A stretch of 64,000 nucleotides of DNA from Candidatus Magasanikiibacteriota bacterium (GTDB taxonomy: Bacteria; Patescibacteriota; Patescibacteriia; Magasanikbacterales; UBA922), in assembly GCA_018650085.1 (NCBI GenBank), contig JABIGQ010000038.1:4388-68387 (forward strand). Reading direction: 5' to 3'. The translations under genes were made by a program, and so were the position numbers. The notes below the pieces were generated by a model, which saw nothing but the letters and a program-made list of their open reading frames with translations, searched no databases and was not told where the DNA came from. Numbering within the stretch: the first letter of the stretch is position 1; the number at the start of each line of letters is the position of its first letter. Positions 8,133 through 60,237 of the stretch are shown piece after piece.

Positions 8133-8236
8133 TTTGTATAGTATATCTATTTTTTCACTGCATGATTGCTTCTTAAAACGTTCCTTTTGCGGAACTAAAC
8201 ATATCCGTTCAAAAATAAATATACTGCACTCTCTTT
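8133..8236 (+). repeat. Copy 1 of the ~100-bp TIR-flanked repeat family. Its left end is degenerate.
   Basis: Core 'TATCTATTTTTTCACTGCATGATTGCTTCTTAAAACGTTCCTTTTGCGGAACTAAACATATCCGTTCAAAAATAAATATA' shared with the copies at 24467, 56983 and 59344. Ends 18 bp before the ATG at 8254. Confidence 0.7.
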
Positions 8237-8253
8237 AATAGATATTATATATT

Positions 8254-10479
8254 ATGAAAAAACAAATAGTACAATCGAGTATTGCTTTTATATTTTTGTT
8301 AGGGATATTGGGGAATATGTATATTTGGCAGATGCCTTTTGTTGGCACGTTGTTATTTTTTTGTTTTTCTGCAACTATTGCGTGGATGTGGCAGCCGGGT
8401 GTTGCAAAAATATTTCATGTGAAGGTGCATAGTGCTATGACGCATTTGCTTGGGTGGAGTGTCGTATTATTTGGGTATGCGGTATTGTCTAGTGTTTCTG
8501 TAATGATTCATAGGCTGACGATGCATCATGTTTCAGGTATATTGTTGTGTAGTGTATTATTGCCTTTTATTTTTTCTTTTTTATATCATAAAGTAAAGCG
8601 GAAACGGGATAAAGGTGTTCGGACGTTGGTAAGTACAGAGTCTTGTAGTCGTCATGAAATATTTGGTGGAAGTTCGTGGTTTATGGTGGTCTATCTGTTA
8701 TTATGGGCTGCTGGTGTGGCATTGCTTGTTGGATCTACCAGTGATGTGGTCTTGCGTTCTCCATGGCAGGCAATTCATCATGTGTTCCCATATGTATTTT
8801 TCTTTGCCAGTATTGTATTTGGAATTATATTATTTTCTAGGTATAAAGTTCCTGTTATTTTATTTACTCTTATTTTACATACGTTTTTATTACATTTGTT
8901 TGTGCCATTATCCCATGTATTGCCATGGGGAGGAGATGTGTGGCGGCATATTGCTATGGAAGAGCGAGTGGTGGCTTCTGAGTATATACATCCCGTGCTT
9001 ATAGGAGATACTGTAGAGATGATCCCAATGTTTGGTGTGCAAATTCCACGATTGTTTTCTCATCCCCAAAAGCTTGGATATAGTATGCTGTGGGGTATGA
9101 CTTCTTTTATTCAATATATCACAGGGCTATCTTTTGAAATAATACATATTTGTTTGGTGCCATTGTTATTTTCTTTTATGGTGCCTGTACTTTTATTTCG
9201 TTTAGGCGCGGTACTTTTTGGGACTACCAGAAGGGGATTATGGTTGGCAGCTGCTTCTCTTATATTATATCCTATCCAAGCTGCGGGTTCTCTTACTGTT
9301 CCTGTAAGCCTTGGGTTTGTATTTTTCTTATTTGTCCTTACTATTTGGGCAACGTATTTACGTTATGGTTATAGATATATGCGGTGGATGTGGTGGGTGA
9401 CTACGGCATTACTTTTTTTTGGGTATTCTCTTTATGCAGTACTTGGATTATTACTTCTTGTATATACATATGCTTATCGTTATATAAAAGGTATCTCATC
9501 TCTGTGGATAAAAAGAAGTGTGCTTGGGATAGGAATGGGTTTGTCTATCTTTGTTATTCCTGTATTTGAATGGTTAGCGGGGACGTGGCAGATGGGTGGT
9601 GTTGATATCTTAAGAGAAATAAAACAAATACTCGGACAATGGAGTGGATTGTATTATATTTCTCAAATTCGTGATCACGATATTTCAAGTGGAAATATGT
9701 TGATAAATCAAACACCTCTATATGCATATGTGGAGACAGTATTTACGGTATGGCGTTGGTGGATATTGGGAGTATTGTCTGGTGTGTATGCCAGCGTATT
9801 TGTGGCTATGTGGTTTATTATAAAAGATAAAATAGATGATAGATGGCGTATATTATTGTGGTTTGGAATTTCACTTTTTGGTGGGTATCTCATAGGGTGG
9901 CATCTTGGTGGTGGAGATAGGGCTATTATTCGCCGTCTGGATTTGGTGTTGGGCTTATTGATTGTATTATTTGCTTGTTATGGATGGGTAAATATAATGG
10001 ATATGTTATCTATTCGTCTCTCTCGTGTGTGGTATAAAGTTGTGGTAATGGTGAGTGTATTATTTGTTATATTGTTAGGGGTGCAAACATATATAAGTGG
10101 GCCAGATGAATATGTATTACATAAGGATAGTTATGATGCTGCGCGTATTGTGGCTACAGAATTGGAATGGGAAAATCCGCAATGTATTATTGCAGACACA
10201 TGGGAATTACTTGCGTTAGAGCGATTTACTCATGCGTATATTATAGGTGGTGGATTTCCTATGGTACATGGATACGGTCAGCCAGAGCGTGTGCGTCTAT
10301 ATCATCAGTTAACAAGTGATTTTGTAGGAGATGAATTGGAAGTGGCGCATGAGCTTACTGGTGATGATAGTTGTGTGTTTATAACATCTGTGAATAATGT
10401 AGACGTTGAGGGTGTTACTGCATTGTTTGGGAGTGATCCAGAGCGGGTTGGTGGAGTATTTATTTGGAGAGAGGATTAA
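8254..10479 (+). CDS. Large polytopic membrane protein with the same architecture as the 6006..8078 gene. Possibly a paralogous GT-C-like transferase; speculative.
   Basis: 741-aa ORF with many TM helices and a C-terminal soluble domain whose layout parallels the divergent neighbour ('ADTWELLALERF..YIIGGG' vs 'DYIVLTNQMVGVTAMKEFG'). Confidence 0.55.
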   Translation: MKKQIVQSSIAFIFLLGILGNMYIWQMPFVGTLLFFCFSATIAWMWQPGVAKIFHVKVHSAMTHLLGWSVVLFGYAVLSSVSVMIHRLTMHHVSGILLCSVLLPFIFSFLYHKVKRKRDKGVRTLVSTESCSRHEIFGGSSWFMVVYLLLWAAGVALLVGSTSDVVLRSPWQAIHHVFPYVFFFASIVFGIILFSRYKVPVILFTLILHTFLLHLFVPLSHVLPWGGDVWRHIAMEERVVASEYIHPVLIGDTVEMIPMFGVQIPRLFSHPQKLGYSMLWGMTSFIQYITGLSFEIIHICLVPLLFSFMVPVLLFRLGAVLFGTTRRGLWLAAASLILYPIQAAGSLTVPVSLGFVFFLFVLTIWATYLRYGYRYMRWMWWVTTALLFFGYSLYAVLGLLLLVYTYAYRYIKGISSLWIKRSVLGIGMGLSIFVIPVFEWLAGTWQMGGVDILREIKQILGQWSGLYYISQIRDHDISSGNMLINQTPLYAYVETVFTVWRWWILGVLSGVYASVFVAMWFIIKDKIDDRWRILLWFGISLFGGYLIGWHLGGGDRAIIRRLDLVLGLLIVLFACYGWVNIMDMLSIRLSRVWYKVVVMVSVLFVILLGVQTYISGPDEYVLHKDSYDAARIVATELEWENPQCIIADTWELLALERFTHAYIIGGGFPMVHGYGQPERVRLYHQLTSDFVGDELEVAHELTGDDSCVFITSVNNVDVEGVTALFGSDPERVGGVFIWRED

Positions 10480-10535: not shown

Positions 10536-13500
10536 ATAAAAGTTATGGATTTCGTCCACTTACATGTACATACAGATTATTCATTTTTAAATGGTTTACC
10601 AAAAGTAAAAGCCTTGGTTAAAGCAGCAAAAAAACAAGGGGCAAAGGCAATTGCTTTAACAGATTATGGTGGTATGTACGGGGCTATTGAATTTTATCAA
10701 GTATGTAAAAAAGAGGGGATAAAACCAATTATTGGATTTGATGCATATGTAGCACCACGAACCATGGCAGATAAAGATTTAGAAAAAGATAAGGCAGTGT
10801 ATAGATTAACACTCTTGGCAAAAGATTATACGGGATATGTGCATCTAATGAAGTTATGTTCAGAAGGGCACCTAGATGGATTTTTTAATGGAAAGCCACG
10901 AATAGATAAAGAAGCAATAAAAAGATATAGTGAAGGAGTTCTAGCATTGTCTGGGACTATTGATGGAGAAGTCTCACAATATCTATTGAAAGATAAATAT
11001 GAAGAAGCAAAAAAAGTTGCATTGGAATATGTAGATATATTTGGGGTAGATAATTTTTATCTTGAATTGCAAGATCACCCAGCAGTAGAAGGACAGATGA
11101 ATGTAAATAGTAAGCTTATTGAGTTATCAAAAGATACAGGTATTCCACTGGTTGTTACTCGTGATGTGCATTATCTAAAACCAGAAGATGCAGAAGCGCA
11201 AGATATTTTACGTTGTATTTCCGAGGGGTGGAAAGTAAATTATACAGATAGAGAAGACATGCGTCATGTGGATCGTTCATTAAATAGTGGAGAAGATATC
11301 TTTGCTCGTTTTCGCCATATCCCAGAGGCATTGGAAAATACAGTGAAAATTGCAGATCGTATCAATATTGAAATTGAATTAGATAATTGGCATTTTGCAC
11401 CAGTAGATAAACCAGATGATAAGACATATGATGATGTGCTTCGTGAGGACTCATATAAATGTGCGCCTGCATTTTATCCAGAGATGGGAAAAGAAATTAC
11501 AGAAAGAATTGAATATGAATTAGATATTATAAAAACAAAAGGGTATTCTCCATACTTTTTATGCGTAGCAGATTATGTAAGATACGCAAAAGATAATGGG
11601 ATCGTGGAATCTACTCGTGGATCTGCAGCAGGTTCTTTGGTCTCTTATGTATTGGGAATTACCACGGTAGATCCTATCCGTTTCAAACTTCCATTTGAAC
11701 GATTTTTAAATCCATTTCGTCCGAGTCCTCCAGATGTAGATACAGATTTTGCAGATGACAGAAGAGAAGAAATGATAGAATATGTTACAAAGAAATACGG
11801 GCAAGATAAAGTAGCACAAATTATCACCTTTGGAACCATGGCTGCACGTGCCAGTGTCAGAGACGTAGGGCGTGCTTTAGCATTATCTTATAGCTTTTGT
11901 GATCAGGTAGCAAAATTAATTCCTCCCGGAGCGCAGGGATTTCCTATGACGCTAGAGAGAGCATTGAAAGAAGAACCAGATTTAAAAGCATTGTATGATA
12001 CAAATGGAGATGTAAAAAAACTTTTAGATCTTGCACAGCAAGTTGAGGGGTGTAATCGTCATACCTCTATTCATGCTGCTGGAGTTGTGATCTCTCCTAC
12101 ACCATTGACTGATTTTACTCCAGTACAGCGAGAAACGGGTGGAGATAAATTGGTGACACAATATAGCATGTACGATGTAGAAGTAGCAGGAGTATTAAAA
12201 AATGATTTTTTAGGAATTCGTAATCTTGCTATTTTAGGAAATGCCGTAAAAATTGTACAAGCAACTACTGGTGTAGAAGTAGATATTTATACTCTTCCAC
12301 TAGATGATAAGAAAACATTTGATATGATTTCTCGTGGTGAGACTATGGGAGTATTTCAGTTTGGTTCTTCTGGAATAACAAAATGGACAAAAGAATTGCA
12401 ACCAACAGTGATAGAAGATATCATGGCTATGGTAGCTCTTTATCGACCAGGTCCAATGGATTTTATTCCAGAATATATTAGAAGGAAGCATAATCCAGAA
12501 GCTATTGATTATCCGCATCCAGATTTGGAAGAAATTTTAGAAAAATCTCTTGGTCTTCTTATTTACCAAGATGACATCATGCTTACAGCTATTAAACTAG
12601 CAGGGTATGATTGGTTAGAGGCAGACAAATTTAGAAAAGCCATGGGAAAAAAAATTCCAGAGTTAATGAAAGAGCAGGAAGAAAAATTTAAAAAAGGATG
12701 TATAAAAAATAATATTAGTACTAGTGTGGTGACTGATCTTTGGGCTAGGATTAAGCCGTTTGCATCGTATGGTTTTAATAAAAGTCATGCAGCAAGTTAC
12801 GGAATGGTTGCCTATCAGACAGCGTACATGAAGGCTAATTATCCGGTACAATACATGACTGCTATTTTACAAGCAGAGTTTGGTGATACAGATAAAGTGG
12901 CAGCTATTGTGGCAGAATGTAGACGTATGGAGATAGATGTATTGCCTCCAGATATCAATGAAAGTTTTAAAAACTTTGCCATGGTTTCAAAGCATGGAGA
13001 ACCTGGACGAATTAGGTTTGGGCTGACCGCTATTAAAAATGTAGGAGAACATATTTGTGAAGTGATTTATAGAGAAAGAAAAGAGCGTGGGTCATTTAAA
13101 GATTTGGAAGATTTACTTCATCGTGTGAATGATAAAGATTTGAGTAAAAGATCATTGCAGAGTTTAGCAGAAGCAGGAGCCATGGATGGCTTTGGTATAG
13201 ATAGGGGAGTGTTTATTGCAAACATGGAAAATATTTTGTTTTTATTAAAACAAATAAAAGAAAAACGAATTAGTAATCAGGCTTCATTATTTGCAGGGAC
13301 AGATATTGTTCTAGATAGTAAAGTGGTATTAAAAAAAGCAGAGAATGCTACTATGGAAGAAAAATTGATATGGGAAAAGAAATTGCTAGGGTTATATATC
13401 TCATCTCATCCTTTTTTATATTTTCAAGAAAAAATGAAAGATGTGTTAACACCCCTAGAAGACGTAGAAGAGGCGCCACGGGACGAATGGACGGTTGTGG

Positions 13501-23821: not shown

Positions 23822-23875
23822 AGTGTAGTATTTGGGGGGTATAATAAGTTCACACAGTATATCTATTTTTTTGTT

Positions 23876-23949
23876 CCTCCCCTATCAGGGGAGGCTAGGA
23901 GGGGTCTGTTTTGTAGAAGCCCCCCTCTAACTCCCCCTGGTAGGGGGAG
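23876..23949. repeat. Cluster of GC-rich palindromic hairpins in an AT-rich spacer.
   Basis: CCTCCCC-TATCA-GGGGAGG at 23876-23894 and CTCCCCC-TGGTA-GGGGGAG at 23931-23949, with a G4/C6 stem between. Preceded at 23860-23873 by 'TATATCTATTTTTTT', which is the left-end motif of the 100-bp repeat family. Confidence 0.45.
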
Positions 23950-23987
23950 GATAACTTAATGGAAGTTTAAATAGTATTAATATTTAC

Positions 23988-24466: not shown

Positions 24467-24569
24467 TGTTCGTACAATATATCTATTTTTTCACTGCATG
24501 ATTGCTTCTTAAAACGCTCCTTTTACGATCTGAAGCATCTCCGTTCAAAAATAAATATATTGTACTCTC
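24467..24569 (+). repeat. Copy 2 of the ~100-bp TIR-flanked repeat family.
   Basis: TIRs 'TCGTACAATATAT...ATATATTGTACTC' and the shared core. The internal hairpin region is degenerate in this copy. Ends 51 bp before the iscS ATG. Confidence 0.75.
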
Positions 24570-42080: not shown

Positions 42081-42096
42081 GATTTTTTTGGTTATT

Positions 42097-42123
42097 GTAG
42101 AGACGCAGCAATGCTGCGTCTAC
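42097..42123. repeat. GC-rich palindromic hairpin GTAGAGACGCAGCA-A-TGCTGCGTCTAC, REP/IS200-end-like.
   Basis: Near-perfect 13-bp stem, 66 bp upstream of the HUH transposase ATG. A second copy lies inside the gene at 42588-42610. Confidence 0.55.
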
Positions 42124-42191
42124 ATCAACAAACAATTCTATGTATAAACAAATAATATCATCTTTATCTAACCCATAAATCACAAAACCCC

Positions 42192-42866
42192 ATGCAACCC
42201 ACCACCCAAAACTTCCTATATAAAAACAAATACAAAACAAACACAATTCGCCTAAAAAATTGGGATTATTCAAAAGACGCATTTTATTTTATAACCATAT
42301 GTACAAAAAATAAACAAAATTTATTTGGAAAAATTGAAAATGATGAAATGGTTTTAAATTCATTTGGGGAAATAATAAAAAAATATTGGTTTGAAATCCC
42401 AAAACATTTTGAAAACGTACGATTGGATGAATTTATTGTCATGCCAAATCATGTACATGGAATTTTGATAATTGATGATGGAAATGGTGGTGGAAATGGT
42501 GGTGGAAATGGTGGTGGAAATGGTGGTGGAAATGGTGGTGGAAATGGTGGTGGAAATGGTGGTGGAACAAAGAACAATGCAAAGATGGAGACGCAGCAGT
42601 GCTGCGTCTCTACAAACAAAATAGACGAAAAGATTCAAAAATCAAATACATTTTATAAATTGAAATCTGGTTCATTACCTGTTATAATTCGTTCATATAA
42701 ATCAATTTGTACAAAAACAATAAATAAATTTCAAGATAATATTCGTTTTGCCTGGCAACCAAGATTTTATGAAAGAATCATTAGAAATCAAAAAGAATTT
42801 TTTAATATAAAATATTATATAATTAATAATCCCGCTAATTGGAGGGATGATAAAAATTTTAAATAA
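42192..42866 (+). CDS. IS200/RAYT-family HUH (Y1) tyrosine transposase, with an in-frame ~60-aa insertion.
   Basis: 'FYFITICTKN', HUH motif 'VMPNHVHGILII', 'SLPVIIRSYKSICTKTINK', catalytic-Tyr region 'FAWQPRFYERIIRNQKEFFNIKYYIINNPANW'. Between the HUH motif and the 'IIRSYKS' helix lie (GNGG)x7 and a hairpin-encoded segment. Confidence 0.6.
   Translation: MQPTTQNFLYKNKYKTNTIRLKNWDYSKDAFYFITICTKNKQNLFGKIENDEMVLNSFGEIIKKYWFEIPKHFENVRLDEFIVMPNHVHGILIIDDGNGGGNGGGNGGGNGGGNGGGNGGGNGGGTKNNAKMETQQCCVSTNKIDEKIQKSNTFYKLKSGSLPVIIRSYKSICTKTINKFQDNIRFAWQPRFYERIIRNQKEFFNIKYYIINNPANWRDDKNFK
42481..42564 (+). repeat. Perfect tandem repeat (GAAATGGTGGTG)x7 inside the transposase ORF.
   Basis: Seven identical 12-bp units encoding GNGG repeats. 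In-frame. Confidence 0.9.
42588..42610. repeat. Second copy of the palindromic hairpin GAGACGCAGCA-G-TGCTGCGTCTC, inside the transposase ORF.
   Basis: Perfect 11-bp stem immediately after the tandem repeat. Confidence 0.55.
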
Positions 42867-44923: not shown

Positions 44924-44944
44924 TATATTAATAGAATAAACCAT

Positions 44945-45490
44945 ATGAAAAAAACATTCACCACAACTCTCTTAATAGCACTTTGTTTTATTACAATAGG
45001 ATGTACAAAAACTGATGTAAAAAATAATACAGAACAAGAAGAAACCGATACAATAGAGATTATCGATGAGGTGGAAGATATGGATGTGAAAGAAACTGAA
45101 ATAAATATAGAAAAAGTAGTATATGATTGGGAAGGAGATTTAGAAGATGTAACAAAAGGAAAAACAATACTTGGAGTAAACACGGAAGGAACCTCATCTG
45201 GATTTGCTCAAGCAGTATTTAATAATACATATACATTGCAAGCGGTATTTGAAGGATTACCAGATCCAGAAGGAACAGATTTTTATGAAGGATGGATTGT
45301 GCGGAGAGAAGGGAGTTTTAATGTTATTAGTACAGGAAAAGCAAGCAAAATTGATGGGGTGTATAAAAATGTCTATGAATCTGAGAAAGATCTAAGCGAT
45401 CATACATTTTATGTGCTTACTATTGAACCAGATGATGGAGATCCCGCACCTGCAGAGCATATATTAGAAGGAGTATTGATGAGAAATTAA
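44945..45490 (+). CDS. Lipoprotein, paralog set A.
   Basis: Signal peptide 'MKKTFTTTLLIALCFITIGC' with lipobox ITIGC. Acidic mature domain. Confidence 0.6.
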   Translation: MKKTFTTTLLIALCFITIGCTKTDVKNNTEQEETDTIEIIDEVEDMDVKETEINIEKVVYDWEGDLEDVTKGKTILGVNTEGTSSGFAQAVFNNTYTLQAVFEGLPDPEGTDFYEGWIVRREGSFNVISTGKASKIDGVYKNVYESEKDLSDHTFYVLTIEPDDGDPAPAEHILEGVLMRN

Positions 45491-45491
45491 T

Positions 45492-46160
45492 TTGTTTAAA
45501 AATATGTCACAAAAAAACACACAAGAATACTGGGACACTGTGTATAAAAAAGTAGACACCGTACTTGGGCCAACATTATTTGTAAAAAAAGTGAGTACAT
45601 ATTTCAGTCCACCAAAACATATTTTGGATGTGTGTTGTGGAGATGGAAAAGATTCTCTTTATTTTGCTACACTTGGATATACTGTTACTGCGACAGACAT
45701 TTCTGCTGTGGCACTTTTTGATAATTTACAAAAAAACAATTTAGATATAGAACGTATACAAAGTGATGTTCGTGAACTTGTTCTTGATGCAAATATATAT
45801 GATGTTGTATACTCTTGTTTAGGATTACATTATTTTTCATGGGAGGAAACAAAAAAGATTTTTGCAAACCTTGTACAATCGCTTAAACTAGATGGATATA
45901 TTTGTGTCAGAGTCAAATCTATATATGATGCTGATTATGGAAAAGGAGAAAAACAAGAGGGTAATTTGTTTATTTCAAACAGAAAACAAAGATATTTTTT
46001 TTCTAAAGAAGAAATGGAGAAGTTATTTTTTGAAAATAATATAGAAATAATATGTTCGGAATATGTAGAAGATGTCTTGAAACGATTTGATAAAACAGAA
46101 TATACTGCAAATTTTGTAGATATTATAGGAAAAAAATTAATGAATAATACATTATATTAA
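45492..46160 (+). CDS. Class I SAM-dependent methyltransferase.
   Basis: Motif I 'ILDVCCGDGKDSLYFATLGYTVTATDIS'. Motif II 'YDVVYSCLGLHYF'. Confidence 0.7.
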   Translation: MFKNMSQKNTQEYWDTVYKKVDTVLGPTLFVKKVSTYFSPPKHILDVCCGDGKDSLYFATLGYTVTATDISAVALFDNLQKNNLDIERIQSDVRELVLDANIYDVVYSCLGLHYFSWEETKKIFANLVQSLKLDGYICVRVKSIYDADYGKGEKQEGNLFISNRKQRYFFSKEEMEKLFFENNIEIICSEYVEDVLKRFDKTEYTANFVDIIGKKLMNNTLY

Positions 46161-46173
46161 TATAAAAGAACAT

Positions 46174-46746
46174 ATGAAAAAAACACTTACAACAACTCTT
46201 CTCATCGCACTTTGTTTCATTACCATAGGATGTACAAAAACAGATGTAGAAAATGACTTAGAAAAAGAACGAGGAAATCAAGAACTTTTGACCCAAGAAG
46301 AATTTGATGCGCTTCGAGCAGATGGAGATATTGAATTTGAAGAAGATTATATTCGAGAACTTGATGATGCAACAGAAGAAAGACGTGTAAATGATGCTTT
46401 AGAACTTATTGATGATATAGAAGGATCAAAAGCAGATAAACTTGCTGGAAAAGGCGCTGTAGGAAGTTGTGAGGCTATTGCAGAAAGTTCAACATGTGTT
46501 GAATATCATGGTTCATTTTGGACAAAAGAATCAGCACGATTGAATTGTAGCGATACAGGCAAGTTTTCTACAGAATCATGTCCTACTGATCATGCAGGTG
46601 GATGTAATACTGGTGTGGGAACTATGGCAGATATGGTTTCTTGGATGTATCTTCGTGGTGATGGAGGCATAACAGCAGAATCACTGAAATATGCAAAAAT
46701 GGTTTGTGATGCAACTATGGCGTCACAGTGGATTGTGAGTAAATAA
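46174..46746 (+). CDS. Cys-rich lipoprotein, paralog set A.
   Basis: Signal peptide 'MKKTLTTTLLIALCFITIGC', near-identical to that of 44945. The mature domain carries 8 Cys. Confidence 0.6.
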   Translation: MKKTLTTTLLIALCFITIGCTKTDVENDLEKERGNQELLTQEEFDALRADGDIEFEEDYIRELDDATEERRVNDALELIDDIEGSKADKLAGKGAVGSCEAIAESSTCVEYHGSFWTKESARLNCSDTGKFSTESCPTDHAGGCNTGVGTMADMVSWMYLRGDGGITAESLKYAKMVCDATMASQWIVSK

Positions 46747-56928: not shown

Positions 56929-56947
56929 AGAACAATATATCTTAAAA

Positions 56948-56978
56948 GAATCCAAGTGAATAACTTGGGTTCTTTTTA
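56948..56978 (+). terminator. Rho-independent terminator after rpoD.
   Basis: AATCCAAGT-GAATA-ACTTGGGTT followed by CTTTTT. Confidence 0.5.
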
Positions 56979-56982
56979 ATTT

Positions 56983-57085
56983 TGTTCGTACAATATATCT
57001 ATTTTTTCTCTGCATGATTGCTTCTTAAAACGTTTCTGTTTCGTGACTAAACATATCCGTTCAAAAATAAATATATTGTACTCTC
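56983..57085 (+). repeat. Copy 3 of the ~100-bp TIR-flanked repeat family.
   Basis: TTCGTACAATATATCTATTTTTTCTCTGCATGATTGCTTCTTAAAACG...CTAAACATATCCGTTCAAAAATAAATATATTGTACTC. Ends 68 bp before the pilM ATG. Confidence 0.75.
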
Positions 57086-57152
57086 ATGTATTATTTAAAA
57101 AATTATGAGAGACTTACATTTTTTATAGATTATATGGTATAATATAATTACT

Positions 57153-58781: not shown

Positions 58782-59225
58782 ATGAATAAAAAAGGTTTTA
58801 CTTTAATCGAGTTGCTTGTTGTAATTGCCATTATTGGTTTATTATCAACACTTGCAGTTGTGGCATTGGGATCTGCCCGTGAAAAGGCACGAGATTCAAA
58901 ACGATTATCAGATTTGAAACAAATGCAAACAGCGCTTGAACTATATTACACAGATGTAGGATCATACCCAACAGCTGCGGCTGGTGTGGTACTTGGTGTA
59001 GAAGCAAATGATACTGTTTGTTTAGATCAAGATGGTGATTTTGAAGATAGAGCAGCTTGTGCGGCTGATGCATATATGGCATTGGTACCTGCTGATCCAG
59101 GATCTACTAGTTACACATATACATCTGCTGCTGGAGCTACATATGCAGTTGTGGCTACATTAGAAGGTACTATGAGTAGTTTAGGCCCAGGTAACGTAAC
59201 TCTCAGCCCGTCAGGAATCCAATAA
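58782..59225 (+). CDS. Type IV pilin / pseudopilin (prepilin-type N-terminal cleavage/methylation domain).
   Basis: '[29 protein letters not shown]' is a class III signal with Gly at -1 and Glu at +5. RBS GGAGAGGGGG. Confidence 0.85.
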
Positions 59226-59274: not shown

Positions 59275-59343
59275 ATGAATGTGTTATAATAGTAGAGGTG
59301 TTTAATCTGGGATATAGTTTTGTGAATTTTTGAAAAATAGATA

Positions 59344-59452
59344 TTCGTACAATATATTTATTTTTTCACTGCATGATTGCTTCTTGAAACGTTCCTTTTA
59401 CGGAACTAAACATATCCGTTCAAAAACAAATATATTGTACTCATCGTAATAA
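59344..59452 (+). repeat. Copy 4 of the ~100-bp TIR-flanked repeat family.
   Basis: TTCGTACAATATATTTATTTTTTCACTGCATGATTGCTTCTTGAAACGTTCCTTTTACGGAACTAAACATATCCGTTCAAAAACAAATATATTGTACTC. Ends 12 bp before the pilD ATG. Confidence 0.75.
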
Positions 59453-59463
59453 TTTGAAAGAAT

Positions 59464-60237
59464 TTGTTTAATATTAATATTTATATGATACATATCCTCA
59501 TATTGTTTATTATTGGTGTATTGCTAGGTAGTTTTCTCAATGCATGGATCTGGAGGACAAGAGAAAAAAAGTCTATTGTGCGTGGTAGGTCTATTTGTCC
59601 TTTATGTGGAGCAAGTATTATGTGGTTTGATAATATTCCTGTGATAAGTTTTTTGATTCTCGCTGGAAAATGTAGGGCGTGTAAAAAACCAATTGCTTTA
59701 CGCTATCCTATAGTAGAATTATTTGTAGGAATTGTATTTGCATATACTTATTGGAAACATGGGATGATATCGTTGGAGCTTATCCGTGATCTTTTTATTA
59801 TATTTTTTCTTACCTTTGTTTTTGTTTATGATTTATTCTATAAAGAAATTTGGGATCGTGCCAGTACTATTCCTGCAATTATCCTTGCATTGTTTACGTT
59901 AATATATGGATGGATGGCGTGGCAATCTATGCTTATTGGGGCTTTGGTTGGAGCTGGATTTTTTTTATTACAATTTGTCATTTCAAAAGGAAAATGGATT
60001 GGAGGAGGGGATATTCGATTGGGATTATTTATGGGAGTTATTTTAGGATGGCCACATATTTTAGTAGCACTTATGATTGCATATGTTGTAGGTGCTGTGA
60101 TAAGTATAATACTTATGGCATTAAAAAAGAAAACATTGGCGAGTGAAACTCCATTTGGTACGTATCTAGCATTTGCTACCGTTCTGACTATGTTTTGGGG
60201 AGAGCAAATTATGAGTTGGTATATTGGGTTGTTATAA
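59464..60237 (+). CDS. pilD: Prepilin peptidase (A24 family).
   Basis: Zn-binding 'CPLCGASIMW...CRAC'. 8-TM aspartic peptidase core ('GGGDIRLGLFMG'). Confidence 0.85.
   Translation: MFNINIYMIHILILFIIGVLLGSFLNAWIWRTREKKSIVRGRSICPLCGASIMWFDNIPVISFLILAGKCRACKKPIALRYPIVELFVGIVFAYTYWKHGMISLELIRDLFIIFFLTFVFVYDLFYKEIWDRASTIPAIILALFTLIYGWMAWQSMLIGALVGAGFFLLQFVISKGKWIGGGDIRLGLFMGVILGWPHILVALMIAYVVGAVISIILMALKKKTLASETPFGTYLAFATVLTMFWGEQIMSWYIGLL

Follow-up and report, generated by a model that had tools for sequence, protein, structure and literature searches.

A family of ~100-bp intergenic inverted-repeat elements, probably MITEs, in a Candidatus Magasanikbacteria genome

Four near-identical sequences of ~100 bp lie a short distance upstream of genes that include pilM, pilD and iscS in the 64,000-nt stretch of DNA analyzed here (the window), and the question raised by the copy in front of pilM is whether such sequences were brought to these places by transposition or are kept there as regulatory signals. 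Both answers had been put forward in the preliminary description of this DNA, in the form of a MITE-like mobile element on the one hand and, on the other, of a shared promoter plus 5′-leader module co-regulating pilus, envelope and Fe–S genes. We consider it likely that the element is a non-autonomous ~100-bp MITE family that spread in this Candidatus Magasanikbacteria lineage, our confidence being limited by the lack of a target duplication, of a partner transposase and of a genome-wide count.

Alignment and core-motif counts confirmed the four copies where they had been placed, all on the + strand. Copy c1 (8133–8233) occupies the divergent spacer between a 690-aa gene (− strand) and a 741-aa gene (+ strand, ATG at 8254). 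Copy c2 (24469–24569) is inside the iscR-iscS-iscU operon, between iscR (Rrf2) and iscS. Copy c3 (56985–57085), the one originally flagged, is situated between the terminator-like hairpin of rpoD and the promoter-like site of pilM (nhmmer E = 1e-31), and copy c4 (59344–59442) between the extended −10 motif and the start codon (59485) of pilD. The boundaries first reported thus required correction in detail but not in location, the right end of c4 having been set 10 nt too far, at 59452. Exactly four places in the window, always on the + strand, show the core motif CTGCATGATTGCTTCTTAAAACG, and the same holds for TCCGTTCAAAAATAAATATA, where shuffled sequences lead one to expect 0.00–0.02 occurrences, and a generic repeat finder returned the same four places as the top repeat family of the window. 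A fifth complete copy, c5, was found ~1.9 kb past the window end on a public contig of the same organism (L001:18764–18864, corresponding to about 65916–66016 in window numbering), between gatA and a LOG-family gene and in the same orientation as c1–c4. Restriction of the copies to the window had been named as a finding that would sink the MITE reading, and c5 lies outside it; no copies beyond c5 were detected up to window-equivalent 72.3 kb. Altogether, five full copies are present within 72 kb at unrelated loci, with a pairwise identity of 86–92% and a length of 99–101 bp, running from (G)TTCGTAC at the left to GTACTC(TC) at the right. A longer element, sought via conserved flanks, was not found, the flanks being unalignable beyond their AT-richness.

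A partial left end had also been reported at 23860. The corresponding 24-nt stretch (23847–23870, + strand) does match the left end at 20–21 of 24 positions, but a right half cannot be told from chance, 216 of 300 shuffles scoring at least as well, and nhmmer returns the stretch at E = 1.8; it is probably the relic of another copy, as a borderline case. Directly 3′ of this stretch, GC-rich palindromes (CCTCCCCTATCAGGGGAGG; CTCCCCCTGGTAGGGGGAG) are clustered at 23872–23955 in the otherwise AT-rich spacer that precedes iscR, and have the appearance of a second, different kind of short repeat.

The terminal inverted repeats, first described as ~13 bp long, are present in an extended form of 18 bp, made up of 11 and 7 pairs around one C/A mismatch (GTACAATATATcTATTTTT / AAAAATAaATATATTGTAC). 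In c3 the left arm (56988–57006, + strand, GTACAATATATCTATTTTT) pairs with the right arm (57063–57081, + strand, AAAAATAAATATATTGTAC), and across the five copies 96.7% of the inverted-repeat cells are paired. The arms stand ~56 nt apart and are AT-rich, neither of them being itself a palindromic hairpin. Between them lies a short central hairpin (57032–57047 in c3, + strand) with consensus GTTCC-N6-GGAAC, degenerate in c3 and with 80% of its cells paired. No other segment of the element is as variable (0.16 non-consensus bases per site and copy, against 0.02–0.04 elsewhere), and 13 of the 28 non-consensus bases counted over positions 3–99 fall in the central 16 nt. Coding capacity is lacking, in that no open reading frame with a start codon exceeds 33 aa; one reading frame is stop-free, and a profile of its translation gave no match among 5.8 billion proteins. 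A separate 7-bp inverted repeat, CTCTCAT-N17-ATGAGAG (57082–57112), overlaps the right end of c3.

The host is a Candidatus Magasanikbacteria (CPR) MAG, the PilM encoded in the window being identical to a protein whose name assigns it to a Candidatus Magasanikbacteria MAG. Same-species contigs with an identical PilM were found in NCBI assembly GCA_018654465.1, in several ENA assemblies and in JGI and Logan data. Their divergence from the window is well below 1% of the compared positions, with the exception of L006, the first stretch of which does not align without gaps. These contigs, representing at least seven assemblies, keep every copy that they cover, with no insertion polymorphism seen among them and a single SNP inside c3 in one contig. 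The first base of three Logan contigs falls within c2 or c3, as would fit a repeat at which assembly graphs break, and the idea that such breaks signal extra copies was dropped, as the known copies explain them. Contig ends also gather elsewhere: six public same-species contigs, taken from different assemblies, start or end within 58838–59024, in the C-terminal half of the pilin gene (58782–59225), which suggests that strain-level pilin variation breaks assemblies there. In ENA assembly ERZ4200993 (L020:6400 region, window 8386–8422) the 741-aa gene has lost 37 nt close to its 5′ end, by strain variation or assembly error, and is accordingly predicted with a later start codon and a length of 680 aa.

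Of the other organisms available, the closest has a PilM that is 71% identical (L010, L011), and the next relatives one that is ~58% identical (L013, L014); contigs L018 and L019 appear to come from the same organism or population as L010 and L011, since L011 and L019 derive from the same Logan run. The relatives share with this genome the gene order rpoD-pilM-response regulator-pilin-pilD-ligA-gatC-gatA-LOG, which allows the spacers to be set side by side. The rpoD–pilM spacer measures 224 nt in this genome versus 103 nt in L010 and 89 nt in L013, the pilin–pilD spacer 259 nt versus 94 nt in L010, 118 nt in L013 and 202 nt in L014, and the gatA–LOG spacer 152 nt versus 51 nt in L013, three orthologous spacers being ~100–165 bp shorter in relatives. 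The divergent spacer between the 690-aa and 741-aa genes, 175 nt here, is 185 nt in L018 and of unrelated sequence. Four of the five orthologous spacers, namely rpoD–pilM, pilin–pilD, gatA–LOG and the divergent one, are thus devoid of the element in relatives. All of the same-species copies are recovered by an HMM built from the five copies, with E-values between 1e-30 and 1e-34, while in the relatives' DNA (L010, L011, L013, L014, L018 and L019; ~59 kb non-redundant, ~74 kb including two overlapping contigs) nhmmer with the same HMM gave nothing better than E = 0.1, and that for short fragments only. The inverted-repeat motif has no copy in these ~59 kb either and is confined to the same-species loci. 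By the yardstick set in the preliminary description itself, the absence of the element from these four orthologous spacers rules out a conserved regulatory module, and the varied placement of the copies relative to promoter-like sites, described below, argues the same way. Gene order differs on a larger scale as well: in L010 and L013 SecDF-DUF8128 adjoins Dus-DnaG-RpoD, and here ~49 kb (~3500–52700) intervene, holding dnaE, the isc operon, clpB, gltX, a RhuM-family gene and a RAYT-like ORF, which points to a large rearrangement or insertion.

Small size, lack of coding capacity, 18-bp terminal inverted repeats, dispersed near-identical copies and filled versus empty orthologous sites together fit a MITE, and it is on these grounds that the MITE reading has held. 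Its further marks of mobility are incomplete. The target-site duplication that had been called for as a check was not found: none of 3 bp or more exists at any boundary offset, and only the dinucleotide TC flanks GTAC...GTAC on both sides, in four of the five copies, and may there belong to the element itself. The trinucleotide or tetranucleotide (G)TTC directly precedes the inverted repeat, again in four of the five copies. The window holds no transposase gene with matching ends, and no DDE transposase was found in its gene tables or by Pfam scans of those of its ORFs not already characterized.

A MITE of this kind would depend on a transposase encoded outside the window that binds both ends and mobilizes the copies in trans. 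Copies would have inserted, after the split from the relative with the 71% identical PilM, into short intergenic spacers, these being the only places where a compact CPR genome would tolerate them. Since then the copies would have diverged by 8–14%, with the unconstrained center decaying fastest and the ends and subterminal parts, as needed for mobilization, decaying most slowly. The distance from copy end to the next start codon, given earlier as 12–68 bp, proved to be 20–67 nt, and such nearness is largely forced, since the spacers would have measured only ~45–150 bp before insertion; subtracting the element leaves ~50–160 nt, much as in the relatives. Individual insertions may nevertheless have regulatory side effects on neighboring genes. 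Where co-transcribed, as would be the case for c2 in the isc operon and for c4 in the pilD leader, the element would add an 18-bp AU-rich hairpin to the mRNA, and a weak outward promoter-like motif in its right half could feed the downstream gene. The insertions in the pilD leader and the isc operon could alter expression of the pilus machinery, on which CPR cells are thought to depend.

Copy orientation is uniform, all five running with the downstream genes and with the G-rich strand (P ~ 0.03 for orientation relative to the downstream gene, n = 5), a uniformity that cut-and-paste transposition by itself does not call for. GC skew is positive across the whole window (0.07–0.28), so that the G-rich strand is presumably the leading strand. 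Orientation thus coincides with transcription and presumably with replication, but nearly all window genes are on the + strand, for which reason copy orientation informs little, and a bias drawn from five copies is only suggestive. A reading that takes this bias at face value is that of a strand-oriented mobile promoter/leader cassette that inserts or survives only along transcription and replication, perhaps by non-DDE single-strand mobilization without target duplication, and that by its outward promoter and RNase III-type hairpin would have rewired expression of the type IV pilus genes pilM and pilD and of the Fe–S gene iscS. We regard this combination as unlikely.

Its regulatory half can also be considered irrespective of where the element came from, as a portable promoter and leader module in which the element is kept for an outward sigma-70-type promoter or a regulatory 5′-UTR hairpin and couples pilM, pilD, iscS, the 741-aa envelope protein and the LOG-family gene. 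The downstream genes are indeed those first named, namely Aminotran_5 followed by NifU (iscS-iscU), PilM and peptidase A24 (PilD), while the 741-aa protein downstream of c1 has no Pfam match. All five copies face the gene that they precede, and all of the element save its central hairpin is well conserved. Promoter and terminator assignments were read from sequence motifs, and it is from these motifs that we infer promoter function. The outward motif in c3 is a weak candidate (TAAACA-18-TATATT, 57048–57077, + strand, right half of the element), and TAAACA-18-TATAYT recurs in c1, c4 and c5, thus in four of the five copies. The match is only 9 of 12 positions, however, in DNA of 33–36% GC in which promoter-like sites are not enriched over shuffles.

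The surroundings of c3 and c4 tell against a module. Upstream of c3 the rpoD terminator-like hairpin (56944–56976, + strand) ends its stem 8 nt before the element, and pilM has an extended −10 motif of its own, TGGTATAAT (57135–57143, + strand), which lies outside the element, 50 nt downstream of c3. For pilD the corresponding motif, TGTTATAAT (59282–59290, + strand), is likewise outside the element, here 54 nt upstream of c4, a position that would put c4 in the pilD leader, so that c4 is probably part of the pilD 5′ UTR. In three Magasanikbacteria both pilM and pilD have a conserved extended −10 motif of the form TGnTATAMT ahead of them, close behind the terminator-like hairpin of the preceding gene. 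In L010 and L013 the pilM motif reads TGGTATACT and TGATATAAT, respectively, and the pilD motif, directly after the terminator-like hairpin of the pilin gene, TGATATAAT and TGCTATACT; in L010 the two motifs are at 9955–9963 and 12072–12080. The pil genes of the relatives, which have no element in these spacers, thus carry their own motifs, and their retention in this genome, downstream of c3 and upstream of c4, means that the element is not the only candidate promoter there. The pilM motif of this genome ends 9 nt before the ATG (region 57135–57152), a spacing that suggests a nearly leaderless pilM mRNA.

The remaining copies differ from these two and from each other. Copy c2, the one without the outward motif, is separated by 8 nt from the iscR stop codon on its left and by 50 nt from iscS on its right; a promoter-like site upstream of iscR matches at 11 of 12 positions, with no terminator-like site between it and c2, and c2 is probably intercistronic. 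Copy c5 begins 13 nt after the gatA stop codon, and for both c2 and c5 the stop codon upstream is nearer than the start codon downstream. Copy c1 adjoins a TTGCAA-17-TATACT site of the gene on the minus strand. Only 20 nt separate c1 from the ATG of the 741-aa gene, which places the promoter of that gene either in the element or upstream of it and speaks for a module. As far as these signals go, then, copies appear before a promoter-like site, after one, within an operon and in a divergent spacer, a variety that fits insertion into any available spacer, unlike the uniform placement predicted for a promoter plus leader. Taken with the empty spacers of the relatives, this makes a portable module quite improbable as the explanation of the family. 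Terminator-like sites were found only upstream of c3 and c4, none overlapping any copy, and an intrinsic-terminator reading was dropped on that account.

The other half of the combined reading, single-strand mobility, would make the element an IS200/IS605-type palindrome-associated sequence or a REPIN-like doublet, moved by a Y1 (HUH) transposase and inserted with a fixed polarity toward the replication fork, on the 3′ side of a short target such as (G)TTC and without target duplication. This agrees with the common orientation of all five copies on the G-rich strand, with the lack of a target-site duplication and with (G)TTC 5′ of the inverted repeat in four of the five, and two arms ~56 nt apart recall the anatomy of a REPIN. 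The window even offers a candidate enzyme in the RAYT-like ORF at 42192–42866, which weakly matches Y1_Tnp and contains an HVH motif. That match, however, remains below threshold (E = 0.0066; 17 bits versus a cut-off of 23), and the ORF is bordered by GC-rich REP-like palindromes, GTAGAGACGCAGCAATGCTGCGTCTAC, at 42095–42126 upstream of it and at 42584–42615 inside it, which are unlike the AT-rich element; its sequence is that of what may be a RAYT-like gene with REP sequences of its own. IS200/IS605-derived elements have asymmetric subterminal hairpins, no inverted repeats, no duplication, a fixed 4–5-nt target 5′ of the left end and strand-specific insertion. For the present element, one orientation, the lack of a duplication and (G)TTC in four of the five copies speak in favor of such an origin, and 18-bp terminal inverted repeats, with arms that are not palindromic hairpins themselves, speak against it. 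With little statistical weight to be had from the orientation of five copies, we think single-strand mobility quite unlikely. The RAYT-like ORF also holds an in-frame 12-nt tandem repeat, GGAAATGGTGGT (42458–42577), of ~9–10 units encoding GNGG repeats.

Folding of the element yields z-scores of −4.2 to −5.9 on both strands, the minus strand being the stronger, a result for which the DNA inverted repeat accounts. Caution over the internal hairpin had been advised from the start and was well placed, this being the most variable part and showing no covariation. The covariance check proposed earlier gave no signal for the inverted-repeat stem, the central hairpin or a 3-bp hairpin, five near-identical copies giving it no power. 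The proposed Rfam check likewise produced no known cis-element: Rfam 15 at gathering score returned two tRNAs only for the whole window, and at E up to 10 nothing meaningful for c4 with 40–60 nt of flank on each side (59300–59500), the best sub-threshold match there being a microRNA hairpin at 17 bits versus a 119-bit threshold. Structured RNA genes or a cis-regulatory RNA (a riboswitch-like leader or sRNA) kept for its fold would fit the strong predicted fold (z = −4 to −6), the conserved small hairpins and the intergenic location, but are highly improbable given that the opposite strand folds equally well or better, that a compensatory double change occurs in 1 of 26 proposed pairs (169 of 500 shuffles do as well), that the internal hairpin is the most degraded part, that Rfam holds no match even at E = 10 and that the element is absent from relatives.

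Returning to the MITE reading, the element can be set against known families. RUP of Streptococcus pneumoniae, a 107-bp MITE, is close to it in length. Bacterial MITEs in general, MITEAba12 and Nezha being further examples, resemble the element in being ~100 bp long, non-coding and AT-rich with terminal inverted repeats, and in forming dispersed near-identical intergenic copies that are absent from orthologous sites in relatives (PMC10969869, PMC2229807). It departs from typical MITEs in that no target duplication or parent insertion sequence was found, and in its CPR host. The best functional analogue is the Correia repeat-enclosed element of Neisseria (CREE/NEMIS), which is of similar size, has a directional core enclosed by inverted repeats and frequently lies 5′ of genes (PMC2649163). 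CREE copies are located either between a native promoter and its gene, where they are transcribed and form an mRNA hairpin, or upstream of the promoter; their ends can donate promoter hexamers, and their hairpins are of the RNase III type (PMC2649163). The two are unrelated in sequence and in phylum, and the present copies all have one orientation whereas CREE occur in both (PMC2649163). The copy alignment contains none of the Correia IHF-site and core sequences (CTTCAGCACCTTA; CCGGTACGG; TCAGGACAA; PMC2649163), and no Correia-type TA target duplication was found at any copy; with these sequences, that duplication and a Neisseria host all lacking, we do not count the element as a Correia member.

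REP and REPIN sequences, in so far as their description in PMC2817692 extends, share with the element a doublet of inverted arms, a ~100-nt hairpin, an intergenic location, many copies and the lack of a target duplication, but the arms of the element are AT-rich and not GC-rich palindromes with a GTAG/CTAC head (PMC2817692). We have not placed it among REPIN–RAYT systems, its arms not being self-palindromic and the Y1_Tnp ORF being flanked by a different repeat. An integron attC reading was dropped after comparison of the element ends with the R″/R′ boxes of the attC consensus, which they do not fit.

No sequence similarity to any element was found in the collections searched. Exact scans of genome, metagenome and viral contigs for the core pattern GCATGATTGCTTCTT-N20–45-CGTTCAAAA, and of metagenome and viral contigs for the inverted-repeat pattern TATATYTATTTTTT-N50–80-AAAAAYAAATATAYTGNAC, both returned zero matches; the genome and metagenome collections evidently do not include this genome, so that these zeros are uninformative on its own copy number. 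A search of the genome-contig collection by PilM found no relatives, and blastn against phages and plasmids gave one chance-level 45-nt match (E = 0.07) and nothing else. In the literature that could be searched we came upon no account of a MITE from CPR bacteria, and a 2024 census of prokaryotic MITEs, based on RefSeq genomes, makes no mention of CPR or Patescibacteria (PMC11602168).

As a kind of object the element is most likely ordinary. CPR/Patescibacteria genomes are small, however, and their mobile elements have been little studied, while this family reaches a density of ~1 copy per 14 kb and would point to a transposase that is, or was until recently, at work in a reduced genome. It would also account in part for the broken contigs of these MAGs, three public ones starting inside a copy, and would offer a strain and lineage marker. 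A further repeat in the window, a 117-nt direct repeat of 83% identity at 44924–45040 and 46153–46269, joins the starts of a 181-aa and a 190-aa gene, one of which has a weak RskA_C match; the two genes are probably recent paralogues.
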